Notes: a model not told the origin generated them from the letters alone. A stretch of 45,099 bases of DNA from an uncultured virus (IMG/VR IMGVR_UViG_2061766007_000929) (IMGVR_UViG_2061766007_000929), one strand, 5' to 3'; positions 22,406 through 45,099 are shown, counted from the first letter of the stretch. Numbers and translations: made by a program.

Positions 22406-22417
22406 NNNNNNNNNNCT

Positions 22418-22546
22418 TTCGTGGCGGCTAAGGCTTCTACTCCGCTTGGGAATGCCTATGTGAGAAATATCTACGCTGGAACGGCGGATATGACCCCAGG
22501 AACTTCTTCTCTGGCATACGGGACTATCTACCTTGTCTACGAGTGA
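22418..22546 (+). CDS. 3' fragment of a tail fibre-type gene (5' end lost in gap)
   Basis: Open frame ...VRNIYAGTADMTPGTSSLAYGTIYLVYE-stop, a fibre-like C-terminal motif. Confidence 0.55.
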   Translation, partial: FVAAKASTPLGNAYVRNIYAGTADMTPGTSSLAYGTIYLVYE

Positions 22547-22555
22547 GGATGTTAT

Positions 22556-23659
22556 ATGGCAACGTACAACCTGAGAGACGTAACACCTTCCCGGCTGTCG
22601 GCTGGGGATATCATCAACCTCCCGGCTAGAATCGGTGACCCCGGACGATGGGGTACGGACGGCAGGTACGGCGGAAGCTTTTCCGTGAATTTGCCTAAAG
22701 GCAGATATCTCTTGGAGTGCTGGGGTTCTTCCTCCAATACCTCCGGGGGCGGAACAGGCGGCTATGCGAAGGGTGTTCTGGATTTACAATCGCAAACTAC
22801 GGCGATTCTCACGGCTGGTGGATGGCCTTTCAACGGTGGGCATTTGGTAGGAACTTTCGAGCAGGATGGGTACAGCCAATGTTCGGGCGGCGCTTCGGAC
22901 ATTCGACTCATCAACAACGACCTGTTGAATAGGGTGATTGTCGCAGGCGGAGGAGGTTCTGGCGGTGAGTACCTGATAAGTTACAATCCGATTCGCCCGG
23001 ATGCTGCAACCTACGGTGTCCTGAATGGCGGGAATGGGGGAGGTCCGAGCGGGGGAGATACCAAAGACCCTAATGGGAGTGTTACTGAGTACACCGCAAA
23101 AGGCGGTACTCAAACTTCGGGGGGAAAAACCGGAAAAGGCTATACGACTAGCAATCATTGGTATTCTGATGGAAAGCTTGGCGAAGGTGGAGGCTGGTAT
23201 GGCAACTATCAGCTCAGGGAGCCGGGGCAAGGCGGAGGCGGCTGGTACGGTGGCGGAGGCGGCGGTACGGCAAGCGCAAGTATTCCGGGTACCTGGATGG
23301 GCGACGCAGCTATGGCAGGCGGCGGAGGTTCGGGGTTCGTATTTACTTCGAGTACGGCAAGGAATGTTCCTAGTGGCTATGCCCTTGGGAGCGCTTACTA
23401 TCTGAGTGATGCTGTGAATATATCCGGGCATGAAACTCCACTTACGAATCCTGACGGAACGGTATCTGCAGGGCATATCGGAGAGGGTTATGTGCGAATT
23501 ACCGTTATCAGCATCTTTAATGGAATCTATATCGGAAGCAATGCAGGAAAAGCTTTGGCGGTGAAGGGAATCTATATCGGAGATTCAAACGGCAAGGCGA
23601 GACGGGTAGTCAAAGGCTATATCGGAGATTCAAACGGCAAAGCAAAGAGATTCTTATAA
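22556..23659 (+). CDS. Stand-alone Gly-rich tail adhesin-like protein, paralogous to the N-terminal domain of 15976..20040
   Basis: Shared MATYNL, LPKG.Y.LE.WGS, SDIR, NHWYS.G, GGGGWYGGG, VPSGYALGS.Y.L.DA, GH.GEGY.RITVI; three C-terminal (G)YIG...GKA repeats. Confidence 0.75.
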   Translation: MATYNLRDVTPSRLSAGDIINLPARIGDPGRWGTDGRYGGSFSVNLPKGRYLLECWGSSSNTSGGGTGGYAKGVLDLQSQTTAILTAGGWPFNGGHLVGTFEQDGYSQCSGGASDIRLINNDLLNRVIVAGGGGSGGEYLISYNPIRPDAATYGVLNGGNGGGPSGGDTKDPNGSVTEYTAKGGTQTSGGKTGKGYTTSNHWYSDGKLGEGGGWYGNYQLREPGQGGGGWYGGGGGGTASASIPGTWMGDAAMAGGGGSGFVFTSSTARNVPSGYALGSAYYLSDAVNISGHETPLTNPDGTVSAGHIGEGYVRITVISIFNGIYIGSNAGKALAVKGIYIGDSNGKARRVVKGYIGDSNGKAKRFL

Positions 23660-23671
23660 GGGGGATTAAAG

Positions 23672-23905
23672 ATGGTAGATACTGTTTATTTGAACAACGC
23701 CCATGCGCTGACCGGGGACGGACTGTTCTACTTCGAGGGGCTGGCGGAAGAAAGAAGCGATATCGCTTCCTTTTCCACGGATTACGCAGTTGGGAGCAAA
23801 ATCCTCTGTGCTAAGGATTGGAGCGGGTGGATTCTTACCCGGAGCGGTAATGACAAGGTGTGGTCGGAGACTTCCGGGATTACGTGGAGCATTATGCTCC
23901 GCTGA
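23672..23905 (+). CDS. Small tail-associated hypothetical protein
   Basis: SD AAGGGGG; FEGL...VGS.......W motif. Confidence 0.5.
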   Translation: MVDTVYLNNAHALTGDGLFYFEGLAEERSDIASFSTDYAVGSKILCAKDWSGWILTRSGNDKVWSETSGITWSIMLR

Positions 23906-23920
23906 GAGGGGGATTCAGAT

Positions 23921-24175
23921 ATGCCGGATGCCGGTGATGTTTATAAGGTTCGGATATCCGATAATACCTATTGGGTGATAGACAGCGGCGCGAGAAACGC
24001 CATTGCGCAGGATTACGATTCAAGCCATGAGTACAGCGTTGGTGATGTGGTCTTTCACAGCAATGCTTTGTATCAATGTTCAAGCGAGACTACCGGAGAA
24101 TGGGACAGCTCTTGCTGGGCGGCGAAGACGATTTTCGAGATTGTTGCGGGGATGATTCAGGCCGGGGGTGAGTAA
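23921..24175 (+). CDS. Small fibre-associated protein with a CBM5/12-like module
   Basis: YDSSHEYSVGDVVFHSNALYQC...GEWDSSCW. Confidence 0.55.
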   Translation: MPDAGDVYKVRISDNTYWVIDSGARNAIAQDYDSSHEYSVGDVVFHSNALYQCSSETTGEWDSSCWAAKTIFEIVAGMIQAGGE

Positions 24176-24523
24176 ATGGGCGATTGTCCGAAAGAGTGGG
24201 GCAATACCTACGTCGGCTGGCGGCGAGGCACTACCCCGACAAATGTTTTCAATGTCAATGTGGACTTGCGAGGTTTCACAATCTATATCAGCTATGCGCA
24301 AAGGGGAAGAGTCGTTGTCGAGAAAACCGGCAGCGACCTTTATGTTACGGAGCAATCCATTGAAACAACGCTTACGCAGGAGGAAACCTTGAAGTTCAGG
24401 ACAGGAGAAGTCAGGGTTCAAATTCGGTACGTTACCCCGGACGGTATTGCGGACGCTTCAAATATCATCATAACGACGGCTGAAGAAATACTGAAAGATG
24501 GTGAGATAAGCTATGTCGTTTGA
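24176..24523 (+). CDS. Putative baseplate/fibre adaptor (BppU-N-like)
   Basis: SD GGGGGTGA; RRGTTPT...LTQEETL.F...VQIR...EILKDG pattern. Confidence 0.55.
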   Translation: MGDCPKEWGNTYVGWRRGTTPTNVFNVNVDLRGFTIYISYAQRGRVVVEKTGSDLYVTEQSIETTLTQEETLKFRTGEVRVQIRYVTPDGIADASNIIITTAEEILKDGEISYVV

Positions 24524-24941
24524 TATAACCTTTGATTCTGATAATCCGTTGAATATTGGGTTTCAGAATCCAAAATCATTGAACGTAACGTTTGGGGAAA
24601 CTAGCGGAAACGTATCAATATTCTACGACACAAAAGAGAACTGGGATAGACAGACGATGCTTATTGCTAGGCGCAAGGCAATCTACGTCTATTCTAATTA
24701 TACTTATCTTGAAGATGAAGTGGGAAACAGAACACCCGTACCTGCTATCAAAATCGGGGATGGAACTTCCTACCTTATTGATATGCCATTTGTTTCGGAT
24801 GATATCCGGCACATACTTATGGAGCATATCGCAGCGGATGGAATCCATGTAACGGAAGAAGACCGAAGAAGATGGGATAATAAAGTTACCGCGTACATCG
24901 ACTCTAATGTCCCTGAACGAATGATACTTTCTAAATTATAA
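24513..24941 (+). CDS. Fibre protein with a hyaluronidase-N/Mtd-N-like KIGDG domain
   Basis: DT.ENW...KIGDG.SYL.D.PF and HI.ADGIHVTEEDRRRWDNK motifs. Confidence 0.6.
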   Translation: MSFDITFDSDNPLNIGFQNPKSLNVTFGETSGNVSIFYDTKENWDRQTMLIARRKAIYVYSNYTYLEDEVGNRTPVPAIKIGDGTSYLIDMPFVSDDIRHILMEHIAADGIHVTEEDRRRWDNKVTAYIDSNVPERMILSKL

Positions 24942-24954
24942 GGAGGATGATAGC

Positions 24955-25986
24955 ATGTCAGAAACCCCGGTTTTGTCTCAAATTACGCTTCCGAATGGTA
25001 CCGTATACAATCTGAAAGACGCAAAGGCCCGCGCAGATATCGCGGACATTCAGGCAGCTATCTCTGGAGGCTTGAAGTTCATCGGAGAGACCACCACCCA
25101 GCTTACAGACGGTGCTACGACTAACCCCATCACCATAAATGGAAGTAGTGTCACGGCACACAGCGGGGATATCGTCGTATACGGAGAAAAGGAGTTCCTG
25201 TTTGACGGAACAAAGTGGATTGAAATGGGTGACCTGTCGCTGCTTGGTGCGCTCGCGTATAAAGATAGTGCTTCTGGTTCATACACACCTACCGGTACCG
25301 TTTCTCAGCCCACATTTACAGGAAGCAATTCAAATGTATCTGTCTCTACGGCGGACAGCGAAAGCGGGAACTATCAACCGAAAGGAACGGTATCGCAACC
25401 AACATTTACCGGAAGTTCATCTTCTTCCAGTGGTGTTTTCACACCCGCAGGAACAGTCAGCGTAAGTGCAAGCGCCACGGAAAACAAGACCACAACGGTC
25501 CAGCCTGCCGCTGAGGGCGCGGCGACGTATACCCCCGCAGGGAGCGTTTCAGCTCCTACCATAAGCGTTTCTTCTGCTGGGGGTACAACTACGGTGAATT
25601 CCATTACGGATGTAGGAACGCTTCCCTCATTCTCAGCTACTGTCAGTAACGAGAACCTTACCCTTGGATTCAGCGCTGGGACTCTGCCTACCAAAGGTTC
25701 GGATACAACTGTGAAGACTTCGGATGCTTCTTATGAGGCGAGTGTACCGGCCTTTACTGGCACCGGGGTTCGGCTGGTAACCGGGAATATCGCCGTTCCT
25801 AGCGCGTATTCTGCGTCGTTCTCAGGTACGGAGGGGAATGTTTCTGTCAGCGGTACTCCTAGCGGTACGGTGTCCCAGCCTACCTTTACCGGAACGAAGA
25901 CGCAAATCAGCGGCACGGTCACTCCCAGCGGGACCGTTTCTCAGCCTACTTTCAGCGGAACTACAGCCACTATAACGGTGGGCTAA
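24955..25986 (+). CDS. S/T/G/P-rich tail fibre with PxGTVSxPTFxG repeats
   Basis: SD AAGGAGG; ITLPNG..Y.LKD N-terminus; GTVSQPTF(T/S)G occurs four times plus degenerate copies. Confidence 0.7.
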   Translation: MSETPVLSQITLPNGTVYNLKDAKARADIADIQAAISGGLKFIGETTTQLTDGATTNPITINGSSVTAHSGDIVVYGEKEFLFDGTKWIEMGDLSLLGALAYKDSASGSYTPTGTVSQPTFTGSNSNVSVSTADSESGNYQPKGTVSQPTFTGSSSSSSGVFTPAGTVSVSASATENKTTTVQPAAEGAATYTPAGSVSAPTISVSSAGGTTTVNSITDVGTLPSFSATVSNENLTLGFSAGTLPTKGSDTTVKTSDASYEASVPAFTGTGVRLVTGNIAVPSAYSASFSGTEGNVSVSGTPSGTVSQPTFTGTKTQISGTVTPSGTVSQPTFSGTTATITVG

Positions 25987-26001
25987 TTAGGAGGTCGCCT
26001 T

Positions 26002-27906
26002 ATGGCTAAAATATCAAGCATTACTTTGCCAAATGGCGATAGTTATGACTTAAAAGATAAGGATGCACAAAGAAAAATAACTGTATCAGGAATCCTTAAG
26101 GGTGATGGTCAGGGTGGCGTGAGTGCCGCAACAGCCGGAGATGTTCCCTACGACAACGCCGATAGCGGCCTGACGGCAGAAGATGTGCAGGAGGCAATAG
26201 ACGAACTGGCGGCTGGTGCTGGAGGTGGAGGAGTTGACCCGGAAACGATTGCACCTGTGGAGGAAACCGCGACAGCAACGATAGTACATCCTCTTGGGTC
26301 AATCTTCTACTTCAACGACATTCTTTATCGTGCGATTGAAGATATCCCCGTTGGCGGTACTATCAACACTGCGACTGGCGGTAATGCCACGCAGACTACG
26401 ATAGCGCAGAACTTCAAGCGGACGGTCACATTGACTTCTGCCGAGTATGCTCAACTGAGTATCGCTGAAAAGACTGCTGATATTGTCTACATCATTACAG
26501 ATGACAATTCTATTCGTGCTAATGACGTTAATTATGACCACGAAACATCTGGGGCATCTACAACCAACGTGCAGGATGCTTTGGATGAAGTGTTCTCTGA
26601 GCTGGGCGGCAAGCAGCCCACCATCACCGCATCTGGCATCCTCAAGGGTGACGGGACCGGGGGTGTAACAGCCGCAACAGCCGGGACGGACTTTCAAGCT
26701 CCGCTGACCATTGATGCTACCCCCACGGCGAGCAGCACCAACCCTGTGCAGAGTGGCGGCGTGTATACGGATGTCAGGACGAGAGTGCCTGTGTATGGCA
26801 AAGGCGTGAACCTTCTGCGGAACTGGTATTTTGTCGGTGGGGGTACAGGTAGAGGCGTGTTTCCTGTCAATCAGAGGGGCGTAATTAGTTATGTGGCACC
26901 CTCTGCTCAATTTGGTCCTGACGCGTGGAAAGTTTATGCTGGGTCTACCTTGACCTTAACAGCGGCTGGAGCAACTCTTTCCAATGGTGGCGTAGTGGTT
27001 ACCAATATACAACGGAACGATTCCTTGTGGGGAAAAGAGGTAACACTGTCCGTATTAACAAGCGGAGGCATTTATACGGCAAGTGGAACTATGCCGAGTT
27101 CTGCTCCAGCATCCCAAACAACCATAATCACAATTAGCAACAGCGCACTACAGTTGGTATTCCGAGTATATGGAAATGATGGAATTACATCTCTTGCTTG
27201 GTGGTCATATGACCCCAACGTAGTTTATTACGCTTTTAAACTCGAACTCGGCTCTGAACAGACTCTTGCCCATCAGGAGAATGGTACGTGGGTGCTAAAT
27301 GAAGTGCCTGACTACGAGTATGAGCTTTACCGCTGCATCACCTCCACTGCAGACCCGTCTGACACCTATGCCAACAAATCCCTTGCCACGGGAGAGGAAC
27401 TTGCCTATGTGGAGAACGGCACTACGGCAAGCAGGAACTATAGTGCAGGACAGTATATCTCTTTGAACGGTCTGCTCTACACGGCAGACACGGCAATTGC
27501 CAGTGGAGCGACCTTCTACACCTCTGGCGGCAATAAAAATTTGACCGAGTGCGTGGGTGGGGGACTAAACTCACTCTCAACCGTAACGAGCGATAATGTA
27601 ACTTTTAGCAATAATGTAACAGGATATACTTATCAGAACGAGTATCACCTATCAAAATCAGGAAATGTAGTCGTTGCAAATATTGTTATGTCAGCGAGTA
27701 GTATTGCTGGCATGGGTACGGTGCTTTGTACAGTTCCTGCGGCATTTAGACCGAGTGTAAACAGGAGAATCGCGGCTTGGCTAACCTACAGCGGTGACTC
27801 AAAGGTAGAAACTGTTTATATTACCCCTGACGGGACAATAAGCACTGCATCTGGTGGGTATAACGTCACGGGTTTTATTCGAGTATTCGGAACGTATATT
27901 CTTTAA
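26002..27906 (+). CDS. Modular tail fibre/receptor-binding protein
   Basis: ITLPNG.SY.LKD start; duplicated ITxSGILKGDGxGGVxAATAG and YD..SG....VQ.A.DE motifs; NLL.NWYF...PVNQRG...KLELG.EQTL domain; C-terminal beta head. Confidence 0.7.
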   Translation: MAKISSITLPNGDSYDLKDKDAQRKITVSGILKGDGQGGVSAATAGDVPYDNADSGLTAEDVQEAIDELAAGAGGGGVDPETIAPVEETATATIVHPLGSIFYFNDILYRAIEDIPVGGTINTATGGNATQTTIAQNFKRTVTLTSAEYAQLSIAEKTADIVYIITDDNSIRANDVNYDHETSGASTTNVQDALDEVFSELGGKQPTITASGILKGDGTGGVTAATAGTDFQAPLTIDATPTASSTNPVQSGGVYTDVRTRVPVYGKGVNLLRNWYFVGGGTGRGVFPVNQRGVISYVAPSAQFGPDAWKVYAGSTLTLTAAGATLSNGGVVVTNIQRNDSLWGKEVTLSVLTSGGIYTASGTMPSSAPASQTTIITISNSALQLVFRVYGNDGITSLAWWSYDPNVVYYAFKLELGSEQTLAHQENGTWVLNEVPDYEYELYRCITSTADPSDTYANKSLATGEELAYVENGTTASRNYSAGQYISLNGLLYTADTAIASGATFYTSGGNKNLTECVGGGLNSLSTVTSDNVTFSNNVTGYTYQNEYHLSKSGNVVVANIVMSASSIAGMGTVLCTVPAAFRPSVNRRIAAWLTYSGDSKVETVYITPDGTISTASGGYNVTGFIRVFGTYIL

Positions 27907-27912
27907 GGAGGA

Positions 27913-28233
27913 ATGACCATGCAACGTCAAATCTTCATTGTCAACGCCTACATTGTTGACGCAAACGGCACTTTTAACAATCTGTCCGGCTACCCCAAGA
28001 CCTTTGATAGTCACCTCTATGGTGACGATATTGACAAGGCCCAGAGACGGGCAATCGGTGATGCGTCCGAGACTTTTGGTGCTATGTGCAAACGTGATGA
28101 CCGTCAGCTTCAGGCAGTCATGGTCACGACAGCAGACGGATTCCAAGTTGAAAAAAGAAGCATCGGTCAGATTTCCGATTTGCCCGACTCTGAACCTGTG
28201 GAGTCCGAGACGCCTAGCGAGGAAGAGGAATGA
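27913..28233 (+). CDS. Small fibre-associated protein (possible fibre assembly chaperone)
   Basis: SD AAGGAGG; follows a fibre gene; acidic tail; start at 27913 or 27919. Confidence 0.55.
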   Translation: MTMQRQIFIVNAYIVDANGTFNNLSGYPKTFDSHLYGDDIDKAQRRAIGDASETFGAMCKRDDRQLQAVMVTTADGFQVEKRSIGQISDLPDSEPVESETPSEEEE

Positions 28234-28433
28234 GCATCAAATACAACAACAGAAACGTGGGTTTGACGTTGCCAGGGAGTTCGGAGGCGGAAGATATTAC
28301 CTATGACCCAACAAACTCTGGTCTGACAGCAACAAACGTGCAGGATGCCATTGACGAGGTGGTATCTGATAGCATTGACTACCTGACCGTTGTAAACGGC
28401 AAAATCTGTGTGATTTATGAGGTGACACCATGA
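28230..28433 (+). CDS. Small fibre adaptor protein
   Basis: ATGA overlap; YDPTNSGLTATNVQDAIDEV motif shared with 26002..27906. Confidence 0.6.
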   Translation: MSIKYNNRNVGLTLPGSSEAEDITYDPTNSGLTATNVQDAIDEVVSDSIDYLTVVNGKICVIYEVTP

Positions 28434-29029
28434 GCGAAGTCACATCTCCGATTATTCTGGATACCACAGGGCAGGACATAGCCGATGCCCTGACCGATGT
28501 AGCCGATGCAATCAACGCTGGCAATGCCACAGCTGCTATGCTGGCTTATGTAGAGAACGGAAGTACGGCAAGTCAGAATTATGCCGTGGGGACTTATATC
28601 TGCTGGCAGAGTCTGCTTTACACCGCAGACACGACAATCAACAGTGGGGATGCTTTCAACTCCACAGGTGCAAATAAGAACCTGACGGCAGTTGGAGGAG
28701 GAGGGTTAAATGGAATTCTTGACCAACTTTGGAAACTTGGGAAACTTGTGACTAACGGTTCCGCAGAGATGGACAATTATACAGTATTTCAAGTGATTCT
28801 TACTGACCCGTGGGTGCAAGGAGCGGCGAGAATTTCGTGTGTATACGTCAAGGGTACAGAGGTATTTATGCCTTATATTACTTATACAGGGGCGCAGACC
28901 CAACTATACTATGCTGCATACCGAATCAATTATAACAGCCAGACTAGGAGTATCCAAATCATTTCTGCTTTGGCCTCTAATGGTTCAACCGCAATCCCGG
29001 CAATCTCCCAAATAGTCGGACTAATGTAA
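28430..29029 (+). CDS. Short receptor-binding/fibre protein (paralog 2)
   Basis: MSEVTSPIILDTTGQDI N-terminus; conserved AYVE.G.TAS.NY...GGLN module; unique C-terminus. Confidence 0.65.
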   Translation: MSEVTSPIILDTTGQDIADALTDVADAINAGNATAAMLAYVENGSTASQNYAVGTYICWQSLLYTADTTINSGDAFNSTGANKNLTAVGGGGLNGILDQLWKLGKLVTNGSAEMDNYTVFQVILTDPWVQGAARISCVYVKGTEVFMPYITYTGAQTQLYYAAYRINYNSQTRSIQIISALASNGSTAIPAISQIVGLM

Positions 29030-29040
29030 GGATGTATACC

Positions 29041-29112
29041 ATGCAGCGTCAAATCTTCATTGTTTCTGCATCCATCGTAGAAACAAGTTCTTCTAAGGAG
29101 GTGACCCCATGA
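29041..29112 (+). pseudogene. 23-codon relic joining the start of the 27913 gene to the end of the 28230 gene
   Basis: MQRQIFIVSASIVETSSSKEVTP-stop versus MQRQIFIVNAYIV (27919) and ...YEVTP-stop (28433). Confidence 0.7.
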
Positions 29113-30071
29113 GCCAAGTTACAGACCCTGTTCTCCTAGACAGCACAGGGCAGAATATCGTCACAGGCATATCGGCTGTGGTATCTGCCATCCAGAGCAG
29201 AGGAATGCCGTCACCATCCGCAAGTAATCCCCAGATGGACGGCGCGGCATCTCCTGGCACTTCCAACGATTATGCACGGGGTGACCATGTGCATCCTGTC
29301 GATACAAGCAGAGCGTCAGCAAGTGCTGTTACATCATTAAATAATCGATACACGGATAATACACTATGGATATCCAATAGTGATGCTAATGACTATAAAA
29401 CCTCCGGAATGTACGCAATGGCGACTGGAAATGCAAATATCCCCGCGACATGGGGAATCTTGTTCGTGATTGCACCGAGAAATGACACCATTGAACAAGA
29501 ATACAGATGCTCAGGTAATATCTGGAACAGGGAATTTCGAAGTAACACTTGGTCAACATGGACGCAAGCCGTGAAACAATCCCAGCTTGCCTATGTTGAA
29601 TCTGGCACTACGGCAAGCAGGAACTATGCCGAGGGGGAATACTTTTGCTGGAACGGTCTGTTGTACCGGGCAAAGACGGCAATCTCCAGCGGGGCATCGT
29701 TTACGCCGGGGACGAACTGCGAACAGGTGACAGAGGGCGGACTGAATAAGATACGCTCAACGGATATTCCAGATGAAATAAATAATAGATTCGGTTACTT
29801 GCGGTGTGTTTCGCAAACAAATAACACAAATTCCGGAGTGACCCTTACCTTTGACCTTAACGGCAATGGGGTGGGGATTATGATTGTTCAGGCCGCAGGT
29901 ACAGAGGGCGCGATTTATGGATTAACTGTGTTGGACTCCGTAACGGCAACAAGACTTGCCGGAAGTTATTCCCCCACGATGAATGGGGCGAATCCACGTA
30001 GTTTTTCCATAAATGTAGGCCCTTGGGCAAACGTCACGATTATTTGTACTCGAAGCGGTTGGACCGCATGA
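29109..30071 (+). CDS. Short receptor-binding/fibre protein (paralog 3)
   Basis: MSQVTDPVLLDSTGQNI N-terminus; P.MDG.AS.GTS..YAR.DHVHP.D motif; knob-like segment (DAN.YK.SG.Y...WSTW); AYVE.G.TAS.NY module. Confidence 0.7.
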   Translation: MSQVTDPVLLDSTGQNIVTGISAVVSAIQSRGMPSPSASNPQMDGAASPGTSNDYARGDHVHPVDTSRASASAVTSLNNRYTDNTLWISNSDANDYKTSGMYAMATGNANIPATWGILFVIAPRNDTIEQEYRCSGNIWNREFRSNTWSTWTQAVKQSQLAYVESGTTASRNYAEGEYFCWNGLLYRAKTAISSGASFTPGTNCEQVTEGGLNKIRSTDIPDEINNRFGYLRCVSQTNNTNSGVTLTFDLNGNGVGIMIVQAAGTEGAIYGLTVLDSVTATRLAGSYSPTMNGANPRSFSINVGPWANVTIICTRSGWTA

Positions 30072-30090
30072 TAATTTGGAGGGACTCATC

Positions 30091-37222: not shown

Positions 37223-37569
37223 GCATGAAGTACATTGACCTGGCCGCTGCCGAGGCGCTTGTTCGGGAGCGGGGCATTCTCGGTGGCGGCTATTCGGGTT
37301 CCGAGCGGGAAGAGGATGTGTGCGATATGCTTGAGGGAGTGCCTGGGATTGAGCTGCCATGTAAGGTGGGGGATGTGCTATACAGGGTTTTCCCTGGCTT
37401 CCCCTCCGTTGGTATTATCCCGGTGACTGTGGAGCGTATTGTTCTCAGCGAATATGAAGGAGAGATTACCGCCAACGGAAACCGCACCTACTACTTCTCT
37501 GATGTTGGGAAGATTCTGTTCAAGACGCGAGATGAAGCTGAACGCTCGCTGATGGAGGGAAAGAAGTGA
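37219..37569 (+). CDS. Hypothetical protein (LPCKVGD...F.TR.EAE family)
   Basis: Motif partly shared with 38188..38499. Confidence 0.6.
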   Translation: MSMKYIDLAAAEALVRERGILGGGYSGSEREEDVCDMLEGVPGIELPCKVGDVLYRVFPGFPSVGIIPVTVERIVLSEYEGEITANGNRTYYFSDVGKILFKTRDEAERSLMEGKK

Positions 37570-37934
37570 CCATAAAGGATTTCACTGTCGGTCAGACAGC
37601 CTATGTCTACGACAATAATGACCGGAGAAACAATCCCGCCTGTGGCTATAGGGAAGTGGTTGTCGACAAGATTGGCCGCTCCTACGTCACCCTGGGCGAT
37701 GCATGGGGAAGCAAGTATGGGGTTGGCTATGGCGGCGGTAACTACCTTGTCGAAAAGGTGGATGCCGGGTCTCCCCGATACCTCTTCAGAACGAAGCAGG
37801 ACTTGGACGATTACCTTGAAGCAAAGGAACTGCGGGTAAAGATTCGCACCGCCTTGGACTGGTGGAACCTTCAGAACCTTCCCATCTCCAAGCTCAGGGC
37901 TATTAAGGAGATTCTGGATGGGGGTGAAGAATGA
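37566..37934 (+). CDS. Hypothetical beta-barrel-type protein
   Basis: GTGA overlap; VGQTAY...V.KIGR.Y. Confidence 0.6.
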   Translation: MTIKDFTVGQTAYVYDNNDRRNNPACGYREVVVDKIGRSYVTLGDAWGSKYGVGYGGGNYLVEKVDAGSPRYLFRTKQDLDDYLEAKELRVKIRTALDWWNLQNLPISKLRAIKEILDGGEE

Positions 37935-38191
37935 TGAGGTATCTACGTGATGAGGATATTGCTGATGCAGTGTGCAGTGTCAAAGTACATAAGGGGTGGA
38001 TGGTGGATTTAACTGAGGTAGCATCGGCTATTTCCGCAATCCCCGCCGCCGACGTTGTGGAGGCGGTCAGATGCCGTGACTGCGTTTACTGGCGTGGCGA
38101 AAATGACTATTGCAAAGGAATTGGCATAGACTTCAGCGAAAACGGCTATTGCTCATTCGGTGAGCGCAAGGACGGAGGGCAGGACGAATGA
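37931..38191 (+). CDS. Small Cys-rich hypothetical protein
   Basis: PAADVVEAVRCRDC..W...C...YCSFGER. Confidence 0.6.
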   Translation: MMRYLRDEDIADAVCSVKVHKGWMVDLTEVASAISAIPAADVVEAVRCRDCVYWRGENDYCKGIGIDFSENGYCSFGERKDGGQDE

Positions 38192-38499
38192 GACTGACGA
38201 AACGCTATCCTAACGGGGTGGTAACGACCGATGATGCCCAGCTTCGTGACATTATCGGAAAGCTCGCCGCCTACGAGGACGCAGAGGAAGAAGGGCGGCT
38301 GGTGGTGCTCCCCAAAAAACTGTATGGGTATTACGAATGGGATGTGACCGGAGTTCGGTACTATGACGGCAAAGTAACGGCCTATTACGTAAAGAATGAA
38401 CAGGTGGAATCCATCATCTTCGAAATCGAAATCGGGGATTCTGTATTCTTCACCCGCGAAGAAGCCGAGGCTGCGTGGAAGGGAGGGCGGGACAAATGA
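38188..38499 (+). CDS. Hypothetical protein
   Basis: RLT...KLAAYED.EEEGRLVVLP...FTREEAE. Confidence 0.6.
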   Translation: MRLTKRYPNGVVTTDDAQLRDIIGKLAAYEDAEEEGRLVVLPKKLYGYYEWDVTGVRYYDGKVTAYYVKNEQVESIIFEIEIGDSVFFTREEAEAAWKGGRDK

Positions 38500-38726
38500 T
38501 TTATGAGAACGTGGTGACTCGACTGAGAAAAGCGGCGGGGCCTGCCATTGACTTCCCGGATACCCTATATGATGAAGCCGCCGATGCCATAGAGGAACTG
38601 AACAAAAGAATCGACTTCTTGATGAACTGCATCTATGAAGCCGAAGATGCTCTCGACAGAGGCGCGGACAACGATTGGGCGAGGGCTGCGTTGGAAAAAG
38701 CGGAGAGGGGGCAGAAATATGTATGA
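38496..38726 (+). CDS. Hypothetical protein (EAADAIE module)
   Basis: ATGA overlap; EAADAIEEL. Confidence 0.55.
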   Translation: MIYENVVTRLRKAAGPAIDFPDTLYDEAADAIEELNKRIDFLMNCIYEAEDALDRGADNDWARAALEKAERGQKYV

Positions 38727-39267
38727 CGAACTGGAAAAGCAGCTGAGATACTGCGCCGATTCCGATAATTACTGCTCCGAGTGCAAGTATCGGGGCGGAA
38801 GCTCGGACGGGTCGAAAATATGCTTGGACTTATTGATGCTTGAAGCCGCCGATGCCATTGAGGAGCGCGACAGGTATGCACTTACCCTCCAGCACGAAAT
38901 GATGGCGGAGGCGGAATCCCACATCGCGTCCGTGGAAAGGTTGAACAAGCAGGTTGAGGAGTTGCAGAAGCAGGTAGCGCATTGGCAGAGAGAACTCGTC
39001 AAGTCTATGTGCGGGGAAACCCTTGCGGAGTTGGAAAAGCCTCGCTGGATTCCCGTGACGGAGCGGTTGCCGAGCGAGGAGCTTTGTTTCTATTCATGCT
39101 ACACAGACAAAGGAGTAATAGTTGAATGTCTTTGGACAAATAATAGAACTGGACTTGGCCCACTTGGCGAGTGGGGATGGAGATTTATGGATGTACCGTC
39201 GCATCAACGTATTACCCATTGGATGCCACTTCCGGAGCCTCCGGAGCCGCCAAAGGAGGAAACATGA
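38719..39267 (+). CDS. DUF551-like domain protein with Cys-rich and coiled-coil N-terminus
   Basis: WIPVTERLP...ITHWMPLPEPP. Confidence 0.7.
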   Translation: MYDELEKQLRYCADSDNYCSECKYRGGSSDGSKICLDLLMLEAADAIEERDRYALTLQHEMMAEAESHIASVERLNKQVEELQKQVAHWQRELVKSMCGETLAELEKPRWIPVTERLPSEELCFYSCYTDKGVIVECLWTNNRTGLGPLGEWGWRFMDVPSHQRITHWMPLPEPPEPPKEET

Positions 39268-39560
39268 GCATCTTAATCATGGGCATGGATATGCCGACAG
39301 ACCATCCGCTGTGGATTGTCGTTCACTCTGACGGAACGGTTGAGGCAAACGAGATAAGCCAGTCTCGCCCTGTCGGATGGCAAACACTACTCAATGCCGC
39401 CGTCCCCGTCCCGCCGCATGGGGATTTGATAGAGCGGGATAAGTTCCGCGAGACCATGTTTATCGGTGAGCAATGCCTTTATTCATGGGACGAAATCGAG
39501 GATGCGATTGATTACGCTCCCACCATTATCCCGGCAGAGCCGCCGGAGGAGGAAGCATGA
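39264..39560 (+). CDS. Hypothetical protein (GMxMP...PPHGDLI...APTIIPAE family)
   Basis: Junction motif start; paralog of the 40619 and 40834 genes. Confidence 0.6.
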   Translation: MSILIMGMDMPTDHPLWIVVHSDGTVEANEISQSRPVGWQTLLNAAVPVPPHGDLIERDKFRETMFIGEQCLYSWDEIEDAIDYAPTIIPAEPPEEEA

Positions 39561-39718
39561 GCATAGAAGACGCTATCGAACTGATTCGCTCCAAGTATGA
39601 GGACAACAAGGACAAGAAGTGGGTGAAGAATCCCGTGGCGTACACGCTGTATGAGGTATGGAAAATCGTAGATAGTAAGGTTGTGTATAACCCATCTGAA
39701 CCGGAGAAAGAAGCATGA
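39557..39718 (+). CDS. 53-aa hypothetical protein (not in ORF track)
   Basis: MSIEDAIELIRSKYE...NPVAYTLYEVWK...EKEA; ATGA overlaps at both ends. Confidence 0.6.
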   Translation: MSIEDAIELIRSKYEDNKDKKWVKNPVAYTLYEVWKIVDSKVVYNPSEPEKEA

Positions 39719-39900
39719 GCGAATCCCGATGCTGCTGTAACTGCCGCCGAAACATCCGTACCGGCAAGCCCGGTAAGGTAGCGTGTCATTGCGAGATAGA
39801 CGGTCACTACATAGGCTATGTGGAGTGCTTTGAAGGCTGGTGCAGACGGTGGGCGAGAGAAACGAAGTGGGATAATGACGGAGGGAAGCACGATGTATGA
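39715..39900 (+). CDS. Small Cys-rich hypothetical protein
   Basis: CCCNCRRN...CHC...C...WCRRW. Confidence 0.55.
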   Translation: MSESRCCCNCRRNIRTGKPGKVACHCEIDGHYIGYVECFEGWCRRWARETKWDNDGGKHDV

Positions 39901-40273
39901 CGATTTGGTGAAGCGGCTACACAACGCGCCGGAAGATATGAACGATGGATGGGCCGTTGTGCTGGTGATGGAAGCCGCCGATGCCATAGAGAAACTTATT
40001 GAAGTTATCCAAAATCATGACTTTCTTGAAAGTCTTATAAAGCCCCACTGGGTTCCGGTGACGGAGCGGTTGCCGGAGAGCGTTGACGATGATGTACTTG
40101 TTACCGATGGGGACGGTTATGCGGTGGGCTATTGGAGACCCGATGCGCAAGCGTGGGACAGCACGGACTTCGGATGGCTGGAGAACCGTAGTGAGCCTCC
40201 CTGCGGAATTCATACCGTCACTCACTGGATGCCACTTCCACCGTTGCCGGAGCAGACGAAGGAGGAAGCATGA
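39893..40273 (+). CDS. DUF551-like domain protein
   Basis: EAADAIE; WVPVTERLP...VTHWMPLP. Confidence 0.7.
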   Translation: MYDDLVKRLHNAPEDMNDGWAVVLVMEAADAIEKLIEVIQNHDFLESLIKPHWVPVTERLPESVDDDVLVTDGDGYAVGYWRPDAQAWDSTDFGWLENRSEPPCGIHTVTHWMPLPPLPEQTKEEA

Positions 40274-40440
40274 TAACCAAATGTCCGTTTCCTTGCATAG
40301 TAAAAAGCCCCTATGGAACCTGCGTAGCTGGACGTTGCATGAACTCTGAATATCGAAGTTTGTGGAACGGGGACAAGCTAGACCCGCGTAAAATGAGAGA
40401 ATACCAAGGTCAAACAAAGCCGCCGAAGGAGGAAACATGA
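40270..40440 (+). CDS. 56-aa Cys-containing hypothetical protein (not in ORF track)
   Basis: MITKCPFPC...KPPKEET; junction motif at both ends. Confidence 0.55.
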   Translation: MITKCPFPCIVKSPYGTCVAGRCMNSEYRSLWNGDKLDPRKMREYQGQTKPPKEET

Positions 40441-40622
40441 AAATCATCGTTGACAAGCTCCCCACAACACCGAAAGAATGTTTGTTTGCCAAACGGAATG
40501 TGGAACGAGGATATATCTGTCCATTACAGCATTGCTCTTGCAGTATAGAGCTTGGATTGAGCAAGTGTCCGTGCCTCTGGACAGACAATGCCGATGTGGA
40601 ACCGCCGAAGGAGGAAGCATGA
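40437..40622 (+). CDS. Small Cys-rich hypothetical protein
   Basis: MKIIVD.LP..P.EC.F...; junction motif at both ends. Confidence 0.55.
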   Translation: MKIIVDKLPTTPKECLFAKRNVERGYICPLQHCSCSIELGLSKCPCLWTDNADVEPPKEEA

Positions 40623-40846
40623 GCGTACTGATAAACATGGAGATGCCGACAAGCCCGGTTCTGTTCTGCATCCATCCAGACGGGAAGGTTTTTGCTGACC
40701 TTGAGGGCGGGTGGAGAGAGTACAAGGCCATCCCCGTCCCGCCGCATGGGGATTTGATAGACCGTGACGCATATCAATATTCCGGCGACCTCATGGACGA
40801 ACCGGTTATTATCCCAGCAGAGGAGGGGTATGAATGTCCGTACTGA
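40619..40846 (+). CDS. Hypothetical protein (PPHGDLI family)
   Basis: 31-nt identity with 39403-39433. Confidence 0.6.
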   Translation: MSVLINMEMPTSPVLFCIHPDGKVFADLEGGWREYKAIPVPPHGDLIDRDAYQYSGDLMDEPVIIPAEEGYECPY

Positions 40847-41124
40847 TTAAGGGCATGGAGATGCCGAAGAACTGTGCGCTTTGCAAATTCCGTGGCGCGG
40901 GTGAAACCTGGTGCCCGTTTACATTGCAAGAGGTTTCTGGAAATACAATCCCGGAGGATTGCCCTCTTGGCCCCGTCCCGGAGCATGGTAGGCTGATTGA
41001 AGCCGAGCCAATTATGAAATATATCGCAGACGGGCTAAACAGCGGAGAGTTTGGGTACGACCAAATCAAAGTGCTTTCGGAAATACAGTATGCGCCCACC
41101 ATCATTCCAGCGGATGACGCATGA
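40834..41124 (+). CDS. Hypothetical protein (GMEMPKNC..C, HGRLI family)
   Basis: SD GAGGGG; paralog of the 39264 gene. Confidence 0.6.
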   Translation: MSVLIKGMEMPKNCALCKFRGAGETWCPFTLQEVSGNTIPEDCPLGPVPEHGRLIEAEPIMKYIADGLNSGEFGYDQIKVLSEIQYAPTIIPADDA

Positions 41125-41174
41125 CCTGAATGGAGAACGCAAGTCCTTGGGATTCGACGGCAGGAGGAAGAGTG

Positions 41175-41378
41175 ATGCCGGAACACGAACACACGCGCAT
41201 CTTTCGCGGCCCCGGTTATACGGTGAAAGCGCACCCCAAGAGCTGCTTCTTCTGTCAGCACTTGACGGACATCTTCTACGACTATACCAACGGCCCCTAT
41301 GGATTCGTGTGCAACCTGGAGGGGGACATCGAAACGGGTATGCGCGGCGTGTGCCCGGATTTTAAGGAGGAAGCATGA
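41175..41378 (+). CDS. Small Cys-rich hypothetical protein
   Basis: SD AGGAGG before ATG 41175; CFFCQH.TDIFYDYTNGPY. Confidence 0.55.
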   Translation: MPEHEHTRIFRGPGYTVKAHPKSCFFCQHLTDIFYDYTNGPYGFVCNLEGDIETGMRGVCPDFKEEA

Positions 41379-41560
41379 CTACTTGTGTAAACCTTGATTG
41401 CCCCTTCATTTGCTACTGCAAGGAGTACAACTACCTTGTTGACCGGGGCGAAGGCTGCGAACACATGGAACAGATTATCAAGAAGGCAAAGCGGTTCGAC
41501 AGCCAGAGAAAAAAGAGAGCCAAAGAGGCCAAAACTACGGACTTAAAGGAGAGCAAATAA
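41375..41560 (+). CDS. Small Cys-rich basic protein
   Basis: Junction motif start; C.N..CPF. Confidence 0.5.
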   Translation: MTTCVNLDCPFICYCKEYNYLVDRGEGCEHMEQIIKKAKRFDSQRKKRAKEAKTTDLKESK

Positions 41561-42006
41561 TGGGCTACGATTCCAACGACTATGATGATGGCAGCATCGA
41601 ACGCTGCCCACACTGCGGCGGAAGCGCCGTTGTGATGGCCTATGGTCCTCCGTTCACCAAGGAAGTCTATTTCTACGTTGTCTGCGAGGACTGTGGCGCT
41701 ATGTCCAGCCCGACAGCAAATACATCGGAAGAAGCAATCCAGAAATGGAACAACCGCACAGAGGATTACCCTGGAAACCCGGACTACGACCCGCGTAAGG
41801 AAGACCACCGTGGAGGTTTGCAGCCAGCCAGTATTATTCGGCATATTCGGTTCTGCGCCGAAGGGAATTGCGACGAATGTTCTCTGAACCTTCTGCTCGG
41901 AAAGGGCAGCAGTACACCAATTCCGTTTTGCAGACATAGGCTAATGCTCGCGGCGGCGGACACCATTGAGCACCTTTTGGAGCGGGAAAGGAGAAGACAT
42001 GGCTAG
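41560..42006 (+). CDS. Lar-family (restriction alleviation)-like Zn-finger protein with a C-terminal Cys-rich module
   Basis: CPHCGG.A...YVVCEDCGA...EEAIQKWNNR. Confidence 0.7.
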   Translation: MGYDSNDYDDGSIERCPHCGGSAVVMAYGPPFTKEVYFYVVCEDCGAMSSPTANTSEEAIQKWNNRTEDYPGNPDYDPRKEDHRGGLQPASIIRHIRFCAEGNCDECSLNLLLGKGSSTPIPFCRHRLMLAAADTIEHLLERERRRHG

Positions 42007-42241
42007 TATGTTCTGCCAGAAGATATACGTCTGTAGAAATGCAGACTGGTGTGCAAGGGATTTCAACCCGAAGTCTGACAACCTAAATTGCTTCGAGGTC
42101 AAGACCCGCTCGGAAGACCTCCGCGCTATGGGCGATGAACAGCTTGCCGAATGGCTGAACCGAATGGAGACAGATGCCCGTTACTATGGGCCGAAGGGAA
42201 AAGCGGCTTGGCTTAAATGGTTGCAAGAGAAGGTGGAGTGA
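41999..42241 (+). CDS. Hypothetical protein (allele 1; allele 2 at 42401..42643)
   Basis: SD AAAGGAG; LRAM.DEQLAEWL...WL.WLQE. Confidence 0.6.
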   Translation: MASMFCQKIYVCRNADWCARDFNPKSDNLNCFEVKTRSEDLRAMGDEQLAEWLNRMETDARYYGPKGKAAWLKWLQEKVE

Positions 42242-42400
42242 TGGGCAGACCTACCGANNNNNNNNNNAAATTGTGACATATGCTCTTTGCAAGTGTTATT
42301 CGGAAGGAACAGTAGTACGCCCAAACCGTTTTGCCGGTATCGGTTGATGCTTGCGGCGGCGGACACCATTGAGCACCTTTGGAGCGGGAAAGGAGAAGAC

Positions 42401-42643
42401 ATGGCTAGTATGTTCTGCCAGAAGATATACGTCTGTAGAAATGCAGACTGGTGTGCAAGGGATTTCAACCCGAAATCCGACAACCCCGAATGCTTCGAGT
42501 TCAAGACCCGCTCGGAAGACCTCCGAGAAAAGAGCGATGAACAGCTTGCCGAGTGGCTGAACCGCATCGAGACAGATGCCCGTTTCTATGGGCCGAAGGG
42601 AAAAGCGGATTGGCTTAAATGGTTGCAAGAGAAGGTGGAGTGA
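42401..42643 (+). CDS. Allelic duplicate of 41999..42241 (assembly artefact likely)
   Basis: Near-identical copy following gap 42258-42267. Confidence 0.5.
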   Translation: MASMFCQKIYVCRNADWCARDFNPKSDNPECFEFKTRSEDLREKSDEQLAEWLNRIETDARFYGPKGKADWLKWLQEKVE

Positions 42644-42927
42644 TGGGCAGACCTACCGAGAAAATGATTCGCTTCGCACACAAAATCTGCTGGTGCCTTG
42701 GTATGGAGACCATCCCTGCCGAGGTTGATTCGGACTTCGATTCCTGCGCGAAGTTCATCAAGGAAAACAAAGGCGAGTTCTATAAGCGGAACCACGAACA
42801 CGACAAATGGCTGCGCGATATGGAAGCCAGCCACCGAACGGATAAATACGTCAGCGAATACAATGTGCCTTACGCTGAAGGTGTGGCGGCTTCGGACTAC
42901 GGGATATTTCCCTGGGGGAACAGCTAA
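42643..42927 (+). CDS. Hypothetical protein
   Basis: TGATG overlap; PTEKMI.FA.KI...F..C.KFI. Confidence 0.6.
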   Translation: MGRPTEKMIRFAHKICWCLGMETIPAEVDSDFDSCAKFIKENKGEFYKRNHEHDKWLRDMEASHRTDKYVSEYNVPYAEGVAASDYGIFPWGNS

Positions 42928-43025
42928 GGAGGAAGCATGAAGTCTGTCGATTACCCCTATAGTTCCGCTCGGAGCGCGATGCTGCGTGGAGAGATTCTAC
43001 AGTGGCTCAAACAGGAGGTGGAGCT

Positions 43026-43244
43026 GTGAAGGTTTCGGAATGTAAAGGCTGTCGCTATTGTGAACGTCGGGTATGGTCTAGCAGCTACAAGCCTGCCAAC
43101 TATCACGAGGTTGGTGTAAGTCACGCGTACCGCTATTGTACGCTTAATAAAGCGAGATGCCTGAAGGTGAAGTTCTGCGCCAGCTACACCAAGGACAACC
43201 CTACGGATGATGCTTACGCCGCCCACATGGACATTTATGGATAA
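43026..43244 (+). CDS. Small Cys-rich hypothetical protein
   Basis: SD GGAGGTGG before GTG; CKGCRYC; preceded by a 30-codon ORF at 42937..43029. Confidence 0.55.
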   Translation: MKVSECKGCRYCERRVWSSSYKPANYHEVGVSHAYRYCTLNKARCLKVKFCASYTKDNPTDDAYAAHMDIYG

Positions 43245-43257
43245 AGGGGGATTGCCA

Positions 43258-43470
43258 ATGAAGTATAGTGGAATGATTGCCTATCTCAGAGAGATTCAGA
43301 ACTATGGCAACAACTACGTTAGTCCTTCCTTCGCTGGTGAGGTTGCGGATGCGTTGGAGTCTATGAGCGGTAAGATGGAACTGTACACCTTCATCTGGAA
43401 CCACCTGCCTAAGGACACTTTGGACTACCTCCTGCATCTGTACCACGAACAGAAGGAATCGGAGGATTAA
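43258..43470 (+). CDS. Hypothetical protein
   Basis: SD AAAGGGGG before ATG 43258. Confidence 0.55.
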   Translation: MKYSGMIAYLREIQNYGNNYVSPSFAGEVADALESMSGKMELYTFIWNHLPKDTLDYLLHLYHEQKESED

Positions 43471-43483
43471 AGGAGGTCATATT

Positions 43484-43735
43484 ATGGTTATCCCTGCGAA
43501 GTGTGTGTGCGATTTCTGCGGTGCAGAGAACCCTAAGTTCAAAGGCGTTGTAATGCCGGTCATCACCTGCTGCGAGTGGACTGAAGGCCGGGGGACACAG
43601 CCACGCATTGAGGTGGAGAAGTACGACATATGCGAGGAGTGTATGCTTCTGGCTACCAACATTCACGCGGACTTCCAAGGCTCCAACCCCTGTATTGAGG
43701 TCAACGGAAAGAAAGTCCGGGGAGAATGGACGTAA
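43484..43735 (+). CDS. Zn-finger hypothetical protein
   Basis: SD AAGGAGGT; CDFCG...DICEEC. Confidence 0.6.
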   Translation: MVIPAKCVCDFCGAENPKFKGVVMPVITCCEWTEGRGTQPRIEVEKYDICEECMLLATNIHADFQGSNPCIEVNGKKVRGEWT

Positions 43736-44109
43736 TGTATTACCTTCAGGAAAACGACAAGTGTGGATGGCTGACTCCGAGCGGGCGTTTCATTCCTTCT
43801 CCTTGGGGCCACCACGAAGAAAGTGCCGAAGAGATAGTCTTTGAAAACGATTGGGAAGAGGACTACAGGAGATGGAGAGAACCCGGTGAAGACCATATCC
43901 TGATGCGGGACTATCTTGTAATGTCGCGTGGCTTTGTTCTGTTCCACAACCCAATGCTGGGGGATACTTATGTGGCGACCTATGCCGAAAAGCTGACGCG
44001 AAAGCAGAGAAACCGCCTATACGACCTCTTTCTGTCCGTTGGAGACCGGGATTCGGCAAACTCCTTGTATAACAGTTGGAACCCTAACGAGTATGGAGGA
44101 ATAGGTTAA
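43726..44109 (+). CDS. Hypothetical protein (GWL.P.G.F...H family)
   Basis: GWLTPSGRF...GHHEESA...LTRKQ. Confidence 0.6.
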   Translation: MDVMYYLQENDKCGWLTPSGRFIPSPWGHHEESAEEIVFENDWEEDYRRWREPGEDHILMRDYLVMSRGFVLFHNPMLGDTYVATYAEKLTRKQRNRLYDLFLSVGDRDSANSLYNSWNPNEYGGIG

Positions 44110-44426
44110 TGGAAGTAAAGCTAAAGATGGACTTCCCGGAGAACTGTGAAAGCTGCCGACTGAACTACGATAGTTGCTGCTGCTGCGTTACAGGGACAAA
44201 GTTCTACGACGGAAATGAGGCGCACTTTGACCCCTTCAAGGACAGGCTACCCGACTGCCCAGTTTCTCCTATGGACAAGAGGGACATTCCCGCTCGCGTC
44301 ACAGTAACTACCGCCACAAAGCGATGCCCCTCCTGCAATAAGCAGTTGAGTGGTAGAGGGAATATCCACAGTAACTACCGCTATTGCCGATGGTGTGGGC
44401 AAGCACTGGATTGGACGGAGGAATAA
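44109..44426 (+). CDS. Cys-rich double Zn-ribbon protein
   Basis: PENCESC...LPDCP; CPSC...YCRWCGQALDW. Confidence 0.6.
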   Translation: MEVKLKMDFPENCESCRLNYDSCCCCVTGTKFYDGNEAHFDPFKDRLPDCPVSPMDKRDIPARVTVTTATKRCPSCNKQLSGRGNIHSNYRYCRWCGQALDWTEE

Positions 44427-44427
44427 C

Positions 44428-44646
44428 ATGAGATACCGCTATTATTCAACTCAAAGACCTGTGGCACCGGGAACTTTTCCCAAGCCTAAAGACAATAAGC
44501 TGATGAGCATTCGGAACTACGACGAACGAAAATTTTTCAAAACCCTCGGCAAAAATGTGTGGGGCTATATAGAGTATTCAGACCCGCTCGACCCGAGAGT
44601 TGCCGAGGAGTACGAGCTGACCTATGGAGGATGCTATGACGATTGA
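44428..44646 (+). CDS. DarA-C-like (defence-against-restriction-related) small protein
   Basis: YYSTQRPVAPGTFPK...WGYIEY..PL......YEL pattern; SD GGAGG. Confidence 0.6.
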   Translation: MRYRYYSTQRPVAPGTFPKPKDNKLMSIRNYDERKFFKTLGKNVWGYIEYSDPLDPRVAEEYELTYGGCYDD

Positions 44647-45099
44647 ACAGATAAAAGAAATGGTGGCTGGGAAGGACTACGACTTCCTGAGAACCAACCC
44701 GCACCTTGAAGGGAAGATTATCTTCCTGACCCTCGGCGGGAGCCATGCCTACGGAACCAATGTGGAAACATCCGATGTGGATGTGAGGGGCTGCGCCCTC
44801 AACAGCAAGACCGACCTTCTCGGCCTTTCCAGTTTCGAGCAGGTGGTGAACGAAGCGACCGATACTACGGTCTATGCCTTCAACAAGCTCATTTCCCTCC
44901 TCCTGAGCTGCAACCCCAATACTATCGAGATGCTTGGCTGCAAGCCTGAACACTATATCGTCCTCACCGACATCGGCAGGGAATTCATTGCCAACGCACA
45001 CCTGTTCCTGTCTCAGAGGGCGGTTGCTTCCTTCGGAGGCTATGCCAACCAACAGCTCCGCCGCCTTGAGAACGCTATCGCAAGGGACGCTCTGCCCCA
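44636..45099 (+). CDS. DNA polymerase beta-superfamily nucleotidyltransferase (RlaP/YcgL-like), truncated by the window end; not in ORF track
   Basis: GGSHAYGTN...SDVDVRG (GS...DxD), NPNTIEML, FGGYA..QL. Confidence 0.85.
   Translation, partial: MTIEQIKEMVAGKDYDFLRTNPHLEGKIIFLTLGGSHAYGTNVETSDVDVRGCALNSKTDLLGLSSFEQVVNEATDTTVYAFNKLISLLLSCNPNTIEMLGCKPEHYIVLTDIGREFIANAHLFLSQRAVASFGGYANQQLRRLENAIARDALP

Follow-up and report, generated by a model that had tools for sequence, protein, structure and literature searches.

The metagenomic scaffold IMGVR_UViG_2061766007_000929, assigned to an uncultured virus in IMG/VR, changes abruptly in its content of the tetranucleotide GATC at a short gap near its middle. 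The whole stretch analysed, 45,099 nucleotides (nt) long and interrupted by eight N runs, is referred to here as the window, and the public runs that contain its sequence are bovine gut metagenomes. The window is very probably a scaffold chimera, whose right part (part B, 22416-45099) belongs to a separate phage that has been purged of GATC, presumably by ordinary restriction-site avoidance. The step itself is a scaffolding artefact, and the GATC avoidance underlying it is of a known kind. The evidence comprises a false join at the gap, misordered pieces of a lysin gene, and a GATC density that is uniform within contiguous relatives. The elements concerned are the following (aa, amino acids).

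1..22405, plus strand: part A, made of contigs 1-276, 287-1434 and 1445-22405; structural module of a GATC-bearing phage.
15901-20040, plus strand: glycine-rich-domain tail protein of part A, 1379 aa, with its likely true start (MATYNL) at 15976.
22320..22405, plus strand: 5' end of the lysin gene, allele A, at the terminus of the left contig; contains the last GATC, at 22340, and is 93% identical to 30694-30779.
22406..22415, no strand: 10-N scaffold gap (N run), site of the GATC step.
22416..30251, plus strand: part B1, a second tail-fibre module, GATC-free (0 GATC against 31.1 expected), with internal repeats.
30433..30642, plus strand: middle piece of the lysin (TIEGNTTSGD region), misplaced in the scaffold; belongs after 30866.
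30653..30866, plus strand: upstream region and N-terminus of the lysin, allele B, start codon at 30697; endolysin PHROGs 21357 and 9589.
30877..31156, plus strand: C-terminal part of the lysin with an SLH cell-wall-binding domain (PF00395, E = 4.9e-6).

The TIEGNTTSGD region of the middle piece is typical of CHAP/NlpC-type lysins.

The loss of GATC after 22416, reported in the initial annotation, is borne out by computed counts of 52 sites in 1-22405 and none in 22416-45099. For the latter, 85.6 sites are expected from base composition and 78.6 under a maximal-order Markov model, so that the second half is nowhere near expectation. The 52 sites of the first half compare with 91.0 expected, a ratio of 0.57. 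The Poisson chance of a zero count given 78.6 expected sites is about 1e-34 (hand calculation), and among all 4- to 6-mers of the second half GATC shows by far the strongest depletion (z = -12.9). The larger gap-free pieces of this half are all devoid of the site, namely 7836 nt (31.1 expected), 3274 nt corresponding to 30877-34150 (12.4 expected), and two pieces of the early region of 8091 nt and 2832 nt (23.7 and 6.7 expected). Successive 5-kb stretches of the first half hold 7, 17, 7, 15, and 6 sites, with no gradient toward the boundary. The same annotation had placed the boundary at a gap and had stated that both variant copies near 1074 and 1452 keep the site. Both statements hold, as the last GATC at 22340 lies just before the N run at 22406-22415, and the variant copies inside part A retain GATC at 1145 and 1523. 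The variant copies inside part B, at 41976 and 42378, are without GATC.

The absence of the site is also visible at the level of codons. Codon tallies and a synonymous codon shuffle were performed on the 38 plus-strand open reading frames (ORFs) of the second half. The shuffle yielded a mean of 57.2 GATC (standard deviation 6.1, minimum 40, 1000 shuffles) against none observed; the corresponding figures for the first half are 87.3 and 49. Isoleucine is never encoded by ATC after a G-ending codon (0/68), while ATC is used in 95 of 217 cases elsewhere, which agrees with the avoidance proposed in the initial annotation. Likewise, aspartate is never encoded by GAT before a C-starting codon (0/43; elsewhere 156/294), and serine never by TCN after an xGA codon (0/17; elsewhere 225/384). 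Thus, the GATC purge in part B is achieved by synonymous codon choice in all three codon phases. The two lysin alleles were correctly described as differing at such a site, with GTG ATC at 22338 and GTC ATC at 30712. In the alignment, this Val-Ile codon pair reads GTG ATC in the left part and in L016, a relative of the left part, GTC ATC in the right part, and GTT ATC in L007, a more distant phage discussed below. Chance or base composition as the cause of the zero count was ruled out by the Markov expectation together with the synonymous shuffle.

The structure of the scaffold around its gaps bears directly on the origin of the step. Three 10-N gaps are flanked by diverged copies of the same sequence, namely 170-276/287-393 (97% identical), 1068-1367/1446-1745 (89%), and 41976-42257/42378-42659 (94%). 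Judged by their sequence, such flanks have the look of overlapping contigs of strain variants. The gap at 22406-22415 is of another make: the copy of its left flank, the lysin start at 22320-22405, does not sit across the gap, but 8374 nt downstream at 30694-30779. The two lysin starts, 93% identical overall, share an identical core of 50 nt. Furthermore, both parts contain a glycine-rich tail protein opening with MATYNL (15976-16908 in A and 22556-23509 in B; 44% aa identity, 332 aa, E = 1e-46), and each of the two has a lysin start some kilobases downstream. Comparison by tblastx shows the block 22416-30251 to be syntenic to 15976-22313 of part A. The tail module of A and B1 are therefore redundant left neighbours of the lysin, that is, alternative branches placed in series. 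The lysin pieces are themselves misordered in the window, with the middle piece (30433-30642) ahead of the N-terminal piece (30653-30866). In 49 of 50 contiguous relatives, the N-terminal piece is directly followed by the middle piece. In the remaining relative, L013, the best N-terminal match falls on an upstream lysin copy, and a match at 8961-9134 does precede the middle piece at 9153.

Contigs from re-assembled sequencing runs provide a further view of the join. Logan contigs of four runs, designated X1, X6, X7, and X8, were compared with 14000-33999; each contig has one depth figure, and X1 is a possible source run only. X6 and X8 are essentially without cover on 14000-22003, X7 has no cover on 32676-33999, and gaps in cover were not counted as evidence. 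In X1, the depth is 48.2 over A, 10.7 over B1 (22416-29617), and 16.7 over 30907-33999. The X1 contig over A, 19190 letters long, shows 0 differences across 14000-22355. The contig on 30907-33999 has 8310 letters and extends to about 39.2 kb, past the gap at 34151-34166, according to arithmetic from the record coordinates. One contig each of X1 and X7 joins 22355 directly to 30730, omitting the block of 8374 nt. The X1 joint contig continues through the lysin as an allele of its own (7 differences in 137 letters), and the X7 contig reaches the middle lysin piece. At the other side of the gap, an X6 contig carries 1013 letters upstream of 22416 that match nothing in 14000-33999. X6 and X8 share 30 identical loose letters at this place, for which the window has no match even with 3 mismatches allowed; these letters continue a fibre-like reading frame (frame read by eye). 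A contig of X8 with 5467 letters has the order 30078-30251, 30657-30866, 30455-30642, 30877-33999. This contig, from an independent study, connects the end of B1 with the lysin and with the genes downstream of it. No contig joining the end of A to the start of B1 was found in the four runs compared.

Composition was compared as well. The GC content is about 57% in 1-22405 and about 50% in 22416-45099, and at the gap the GC profile drops from roughly 55% to roughly 49%. Tetranucleotide correlations, calculated with GATC excluded, lie at 0.64-0.83 for comparisons within A, at 0.73-0.87 for A with its contiguous relatives L016 and L058, and at only 0.47-0.64 for A with B. CTAG is depleted in A (3 sites against 16.5 expected), an avoidance common to the relatives L015, L016, and L058 but not shared by B, in which the site occurs 21 times against 33.6 expected. 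Part A additionally is without several GC-rich 6-bp palindromes, namely GCCGGC (0 against 14.1 expected), CAGCTG (0 against 13.5), CCGCGG (0 against 9.1), and GGCGCC (0 against 8.8).

A metagenome scan with the N-terminus of the lysin returned 55 loci, with GATC observed/expected ratios from 0.00 to 1.28. The density does not switch at the lysin in any of the 19 loci whose lysin is flanked by 3 kb or more on each side. Instead, the ratios of the two flanks run parallel, as in 0.38/0.35, 0.63/0.55, and 1.10/1.20. As the two sides track each other, GATC density behaves in this phage group as a property of the whole contig and not of a module. The left part has relatives in L016 and L058, which match it at 67-78% nucleotide identity over the tape-measure and tail genes. 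L007, only a distant relative of the right part, has no GATC at all where 43.7 sites are expected, over a region with head, major tail, tape-measure, fibre, and lysin genes; these figures come from 11,154 nt (1-11154) of a record of 33,999 nt.

Several of these loci show further peculiarities around the lysin. L013 (4992-9620) contains two lysin genes 3.9 kb apart, and L057 (388-459) and L058 (9343-9426) carry remnants of the lysin N-terminus of 24-28 aa about 600 nt upstream of the lysin. On the basis of these arrangements, the lysin 5' end has the appearance of a scar of recombination, or of a linker, next to fibre cassettes. L015 and L016 lie on one contig of 111,535 nt, with their lysin cassettes about 90 kb apart; 5.1 kb are shared at 98.8%, and the upstream sequences differ. 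This duplication is either a repeat in a large genome or another assembly join. The stretch of L015 downstream of the lysin has a tetranucleotide correlation of 0.68-0.81 with A, but its tie to A-type tails is unsure. It was rejected as the downstream region of an A-type phage, since the similarity of L015 to L016 is limited to these roughly 5.1 kb around the lysin and their upstream sequences differ.

A rival explanation is a real mosaic genome, in which recombination at the lysin hinge would have joined a GATC-bearing A-type structural module to the GATC-free B in at least a sub-population, leaving a young recombination scar. Duplicated lysins or lysin remnants do occur beside fibre cassettes in L013, L057, and L058, and the 93% identity of the lysin 5' ends with their 50-nt identical core would allow homologous exchange. 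Moreover, the tail-fibre region is mosaic between samples, with joints and replaced stretches in X6 and X8, and the lower depth of B (10.7-16.7, below the 48.2 of A) would permit a minority of A-type molecules to carry B. This reading is nevertheless unlikely. The four runs contain no A-B1 contig, and A runs into its own lysin allele, while the start of B1 continues upstream into a fibre-like ORF outside the window. In X8, the B-allele lysin is preceded by the end of B1 and not by the last gene of A, and none of the 19 contiguous relatives shows a GATC step. One of two explanations offered in the initial annotation was that a GATC-tolerant structural module had been joined, by scaffolding or by real recombination, to a genome adapted to a GATC-restricting host. 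The scaffold half of this proposal agrees with the gap join, the depths, the contig continuations, and the redundant modules; the recombinant half is not supported, given the uniform density of the 19 relatives, the late genes within the GATC-free part, and the lack of GATC in the structural genes of L007. A broader form of the idea regards the lysin 5' end as a natural recombination linker for swaps of tail-fibre and lysis cassettes among co-resident rumen phages, with some molecules truly joining GATC-bearing and GATC-free parts. It has only a slender chance of being correct. If it were, the step would be a scar that could be dated, left when phages adapted to GATC-restricting hosts exchanged DNA with phages adapted to hosts that lack such restriction.

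The chimera, which remains the preferred reading, probably arose as follows. The scaffold would combine contigs from two or more related, siphovirus-like phages that co-occur in the bovine gut or rumen and possess a similar lysin gene. Phage A (1-22405) tolerates GATC, with its ratio of 0.57. Phage B (22416-45099) has lost every GATC from the 22.5 kb in view, including late genes (tail fibres, lysin, and holin-like gene) and early genes (dUTPase, DnaB, Lar-like, and DarA_C-like genes). The scaffolder probably set the two alternative left neighbours of the lysin in series, with the lysin start of A against the first base of B, and this placement would produce the apparent GATC step at 22406-22415. 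The selective agent acting on phage B is presumably a GATC-specific restriction system in its host lineage, and the purge itself would be ordinary restriction-site avoidance.

Some observations weigh against this explanation. The variant copies agree with their own half, and a true within-genome step present in two strains would give the same pattern. In view of L013, L057, and L058, the order lysin, fibre block, lysin could be real in one genome. Contigs of X1 at a depth of about 50 resemble 29712-30251 (42 differences in 540 letters, about 92% identity) and run toward the lysin; an abundant X1 population therefore owns a cassette similar to the end of B1. B1 itself differs from the rest of B in depth (10.7 against 16.7 downstream) and has a tetranucleotide correlation with it of only 0.58-0.61, so that the tie between the two rests on the contig links and on the shared absence of GATC. 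The depths come from a merely possible source run with a single figure per Logan contig, and the uniformity of GATC across the whole genomes of phages A and B is extrapolated from their relatives.

The genes downstream of the lysin, with their Pfam and PHROG matches, are relevant to a different explanation of the step.

31390-31677, plus strand: holin-like gene (phrog_937), GATC-free.
32262-32675, plus strand: dUTPase (PF00692), GATC-free.
32865-34190, plus strand: DnaB-type helicase (PF03796/PF00772), GATC-free.
34167..45099, plus strand: early or accessory genes of part B (Pfam and PHROG), GATC-free; include YodL-like and ProQ_C-like genes and two DUF551 paralogs.
41560-42006, plus strand: Lar-like gene (PF14354, E = 3.2e-10).
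44350-44646, plus strand: DarA_C-like gene (PF18789, E = 1.8e-22).
44624-45097, plus strand: RlaP-type nucleotidyltransferase, open end.

The second explanation of the initial annotation held that the GATC-free part enters the cell early. According to this proposal, the window would be one genome whose first-entering, GATC-free segment expresses the Lar-like and DarA_C-like anti-restriction genes before the remainder enters. The entry models of T7 and T5 serve as a comparison for such a segment. Both genes do sit in the GATC-free half, as the annotation had recognised, and both are matched by Pfam. A precedent is found in Murciavirus phages, whose sensitivity to a Type I system is determined by a lack of the motif in the leading injected region only (PMC12455610). 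The resemblance lies in a motif-free stretch with anti-restriction genes beside a motif-bearing stretch. However, GATC is a Type II-type palindrome and not a Type I site, and the proposal needs A and B on one molecule, against which the contigs and the depths (48.2 versus 10.7 and 16.7) speak; no contig bridges the end of A and the start of B1. The motif-free part is not limited to early genes, but also comprises the lysin, the holin-like gene, and tail-fibre genes that take up about 8 kb. In addition, L007 is without GATC throughout the structural genes sampled, and relatives are uniform across the lysin (0/19 switch). Early entry of a protected segment is thus extremely unlikely, and the proposal is not supported.

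The host of phage B is probably a clostridial (Oscillospirales-like) rumen bacterium, as pointed to by the SLH domain of the lysin and by the cellular relatives of DnaB. A DnaB scan of bacterial genome contigs yielded 80 loci, with the nearest cellular relatives in Oscillospiraceae and Ruminococcus at 41-50% aa identity. These loci were taken as chromosomal dnaB regions of Oscillospiraceae, Faecousia, Oscillibacter, and Ruminococcus, and give a faint hint of the host. Nothing else convincing in common with the window was found at the 80 loci, where eight weak tblastx pieces occur in six of them (29-36 bits), and a scan of the genome contigs with the glycine-rich protein of B returned none. The GATC observed/expected ratio at these loci (L059-L138) ranges from 0.0 to 1.23, and GATC avoidance is therefore variable between lineages of the candidate host clade. 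The 21-kb loci L082, L077, L109, and L060 have ratios of at most 0.23. DpnII was found in none of five genomes behind GATC-poor dnaB loci and in none of five behind GATC-normal ones. MutH/Sau3AI was found in one of the five GATC-poor genomes, as a partial match at a contig end, and in none of the five GATC-normal ones; the genomes of both searches are mostly metagenome-assembled and maybe incomplete.

The enzyme could also be a product of phage B itself. In this variant of the chimera, phage B or a co-resident element would encode a GATC-cutting nuclease attacking host DNA, and the purge would be a consequence of it. The window holds only part of the genome of phage B, which leaves room for such a gene. 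None of the 64 window ORFs scanned matches the GATC methyltransferase or nuclease families MutH, DpnII, DpnI, or Dam at E <= 0.001, and host Type II systems account for the phage cases surveyed in PMC6286503. A self-encoded nuclease is accordingly very unlikely.

The avoidance of short palindromes in phage genomes was reportedly described in older work by Sharp in 1986 and by Rocha in 2001. Rusinov et al. 2018 found complete or near-complete elimination of sites in about one tenth of viral genomes, which mostly concerned orthodox Type II sites and non-temperate phages, and GATC was under-represented in all 46 phages with a host-encoded matching enzyme (PMC6286503). Phage B resembles the cases of this survey in fully eliminating a Type II 4-bp palindrome, synonymously and in late as well as early genes, and its other palindromes are only mildly depleted. 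It differs in that only 22.5 kb are in view. Unlike the surveyed cases, phage B also has the Lar-like and DarA_C-like genes, and avoidance is likely not its sole counter-measure. The join has parallels among the chimeric or branch-flattened contigs and scaffolds that arise when viral metagenomes of micro-diverse populations are assembled (PMC5610896, PMC10914622, and bioRxiv 10.1101/2024.03.29.587318), in that a shared near-identical gene, here the lysin, links the assembly graphs of two related phages. The present scaffold, with its branches in series, diverged-duplicate gap flanks, and misordered small pieces, does not differ from these in kind and is visible through a step in word frequency.

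Caution is thus advised where composition shifts strikingly within a gap-ridden viral scaffold, as the shift can mark the seam of two genomes. The question is quickly settled by examining gap flanks and contig depth together with re-assemblies of other runs. At least two rumen phage lineages, represented by part B and L007, are completely GATC-free in the sequence seen, and relatives that share the lysin reach normal density. Each relative is uniform along its contig. The pattern suggests that only a subset of rumen clostridial hosts exerts GATC-specific restriction, and GATC density could therefore be usable as a cheap marker of the host lineage for these uncultured phages.

By megablast, neither half of the window matched any of 50,697 phage records. 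IMG/VR scans likewise yielded nothing close, and those with the last protein of A, a 35-nt lysin core, and the glycine-rich protein of B returned none. With DnaB, the IMG/VR scan found 3 loci only, at 31-34% and not close. All recognisable genes of the window are on the plus strand. In addition to those listed above, they include the following.

Part A, plus strand: Ig-domain head protein, and tape measure at 8925-14498 (1857 aa), from Pfam and PHROG matches.
Part B1, plus strand: 3' end of a fibre-like ORF, 367-aa glycine-rich MATYNL protein at 22556-23659, and 634-aa protein at 26002-27906.
Within 22416..30251, plus strand: three tandem fibre-tip cassettes of B1.

The fibre-tip segment is present in three tandem copies (27400-27509, 28541-28650, and 29586-29695; 71-74% identical), and the start of a small downstream gene in two (27916-27964 and 29038-29086). 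Together, these repeats resemble an array of cassettes for alternative fibre tips. In part A, a direct repeat of 60 nt, 83% identical, is located at 946-1005 and 4876-4935 and contains the inverted AAATCG...CGATTT followed by GGAGAGGA. Both copies lie directly upstream of genes in the ORF list, and the repeat may be a shared regulatory or terminator-plus-RBS (ribosome-binding site) element. The DUF551 paralogs of the early region are encoded at 38635-39267 and 39818-40273, and flanking segments are repeated as well (39036/40039, 39214/40220, and 39399/40727), an arrangement that constitutes a local tandem duplication within the early region.

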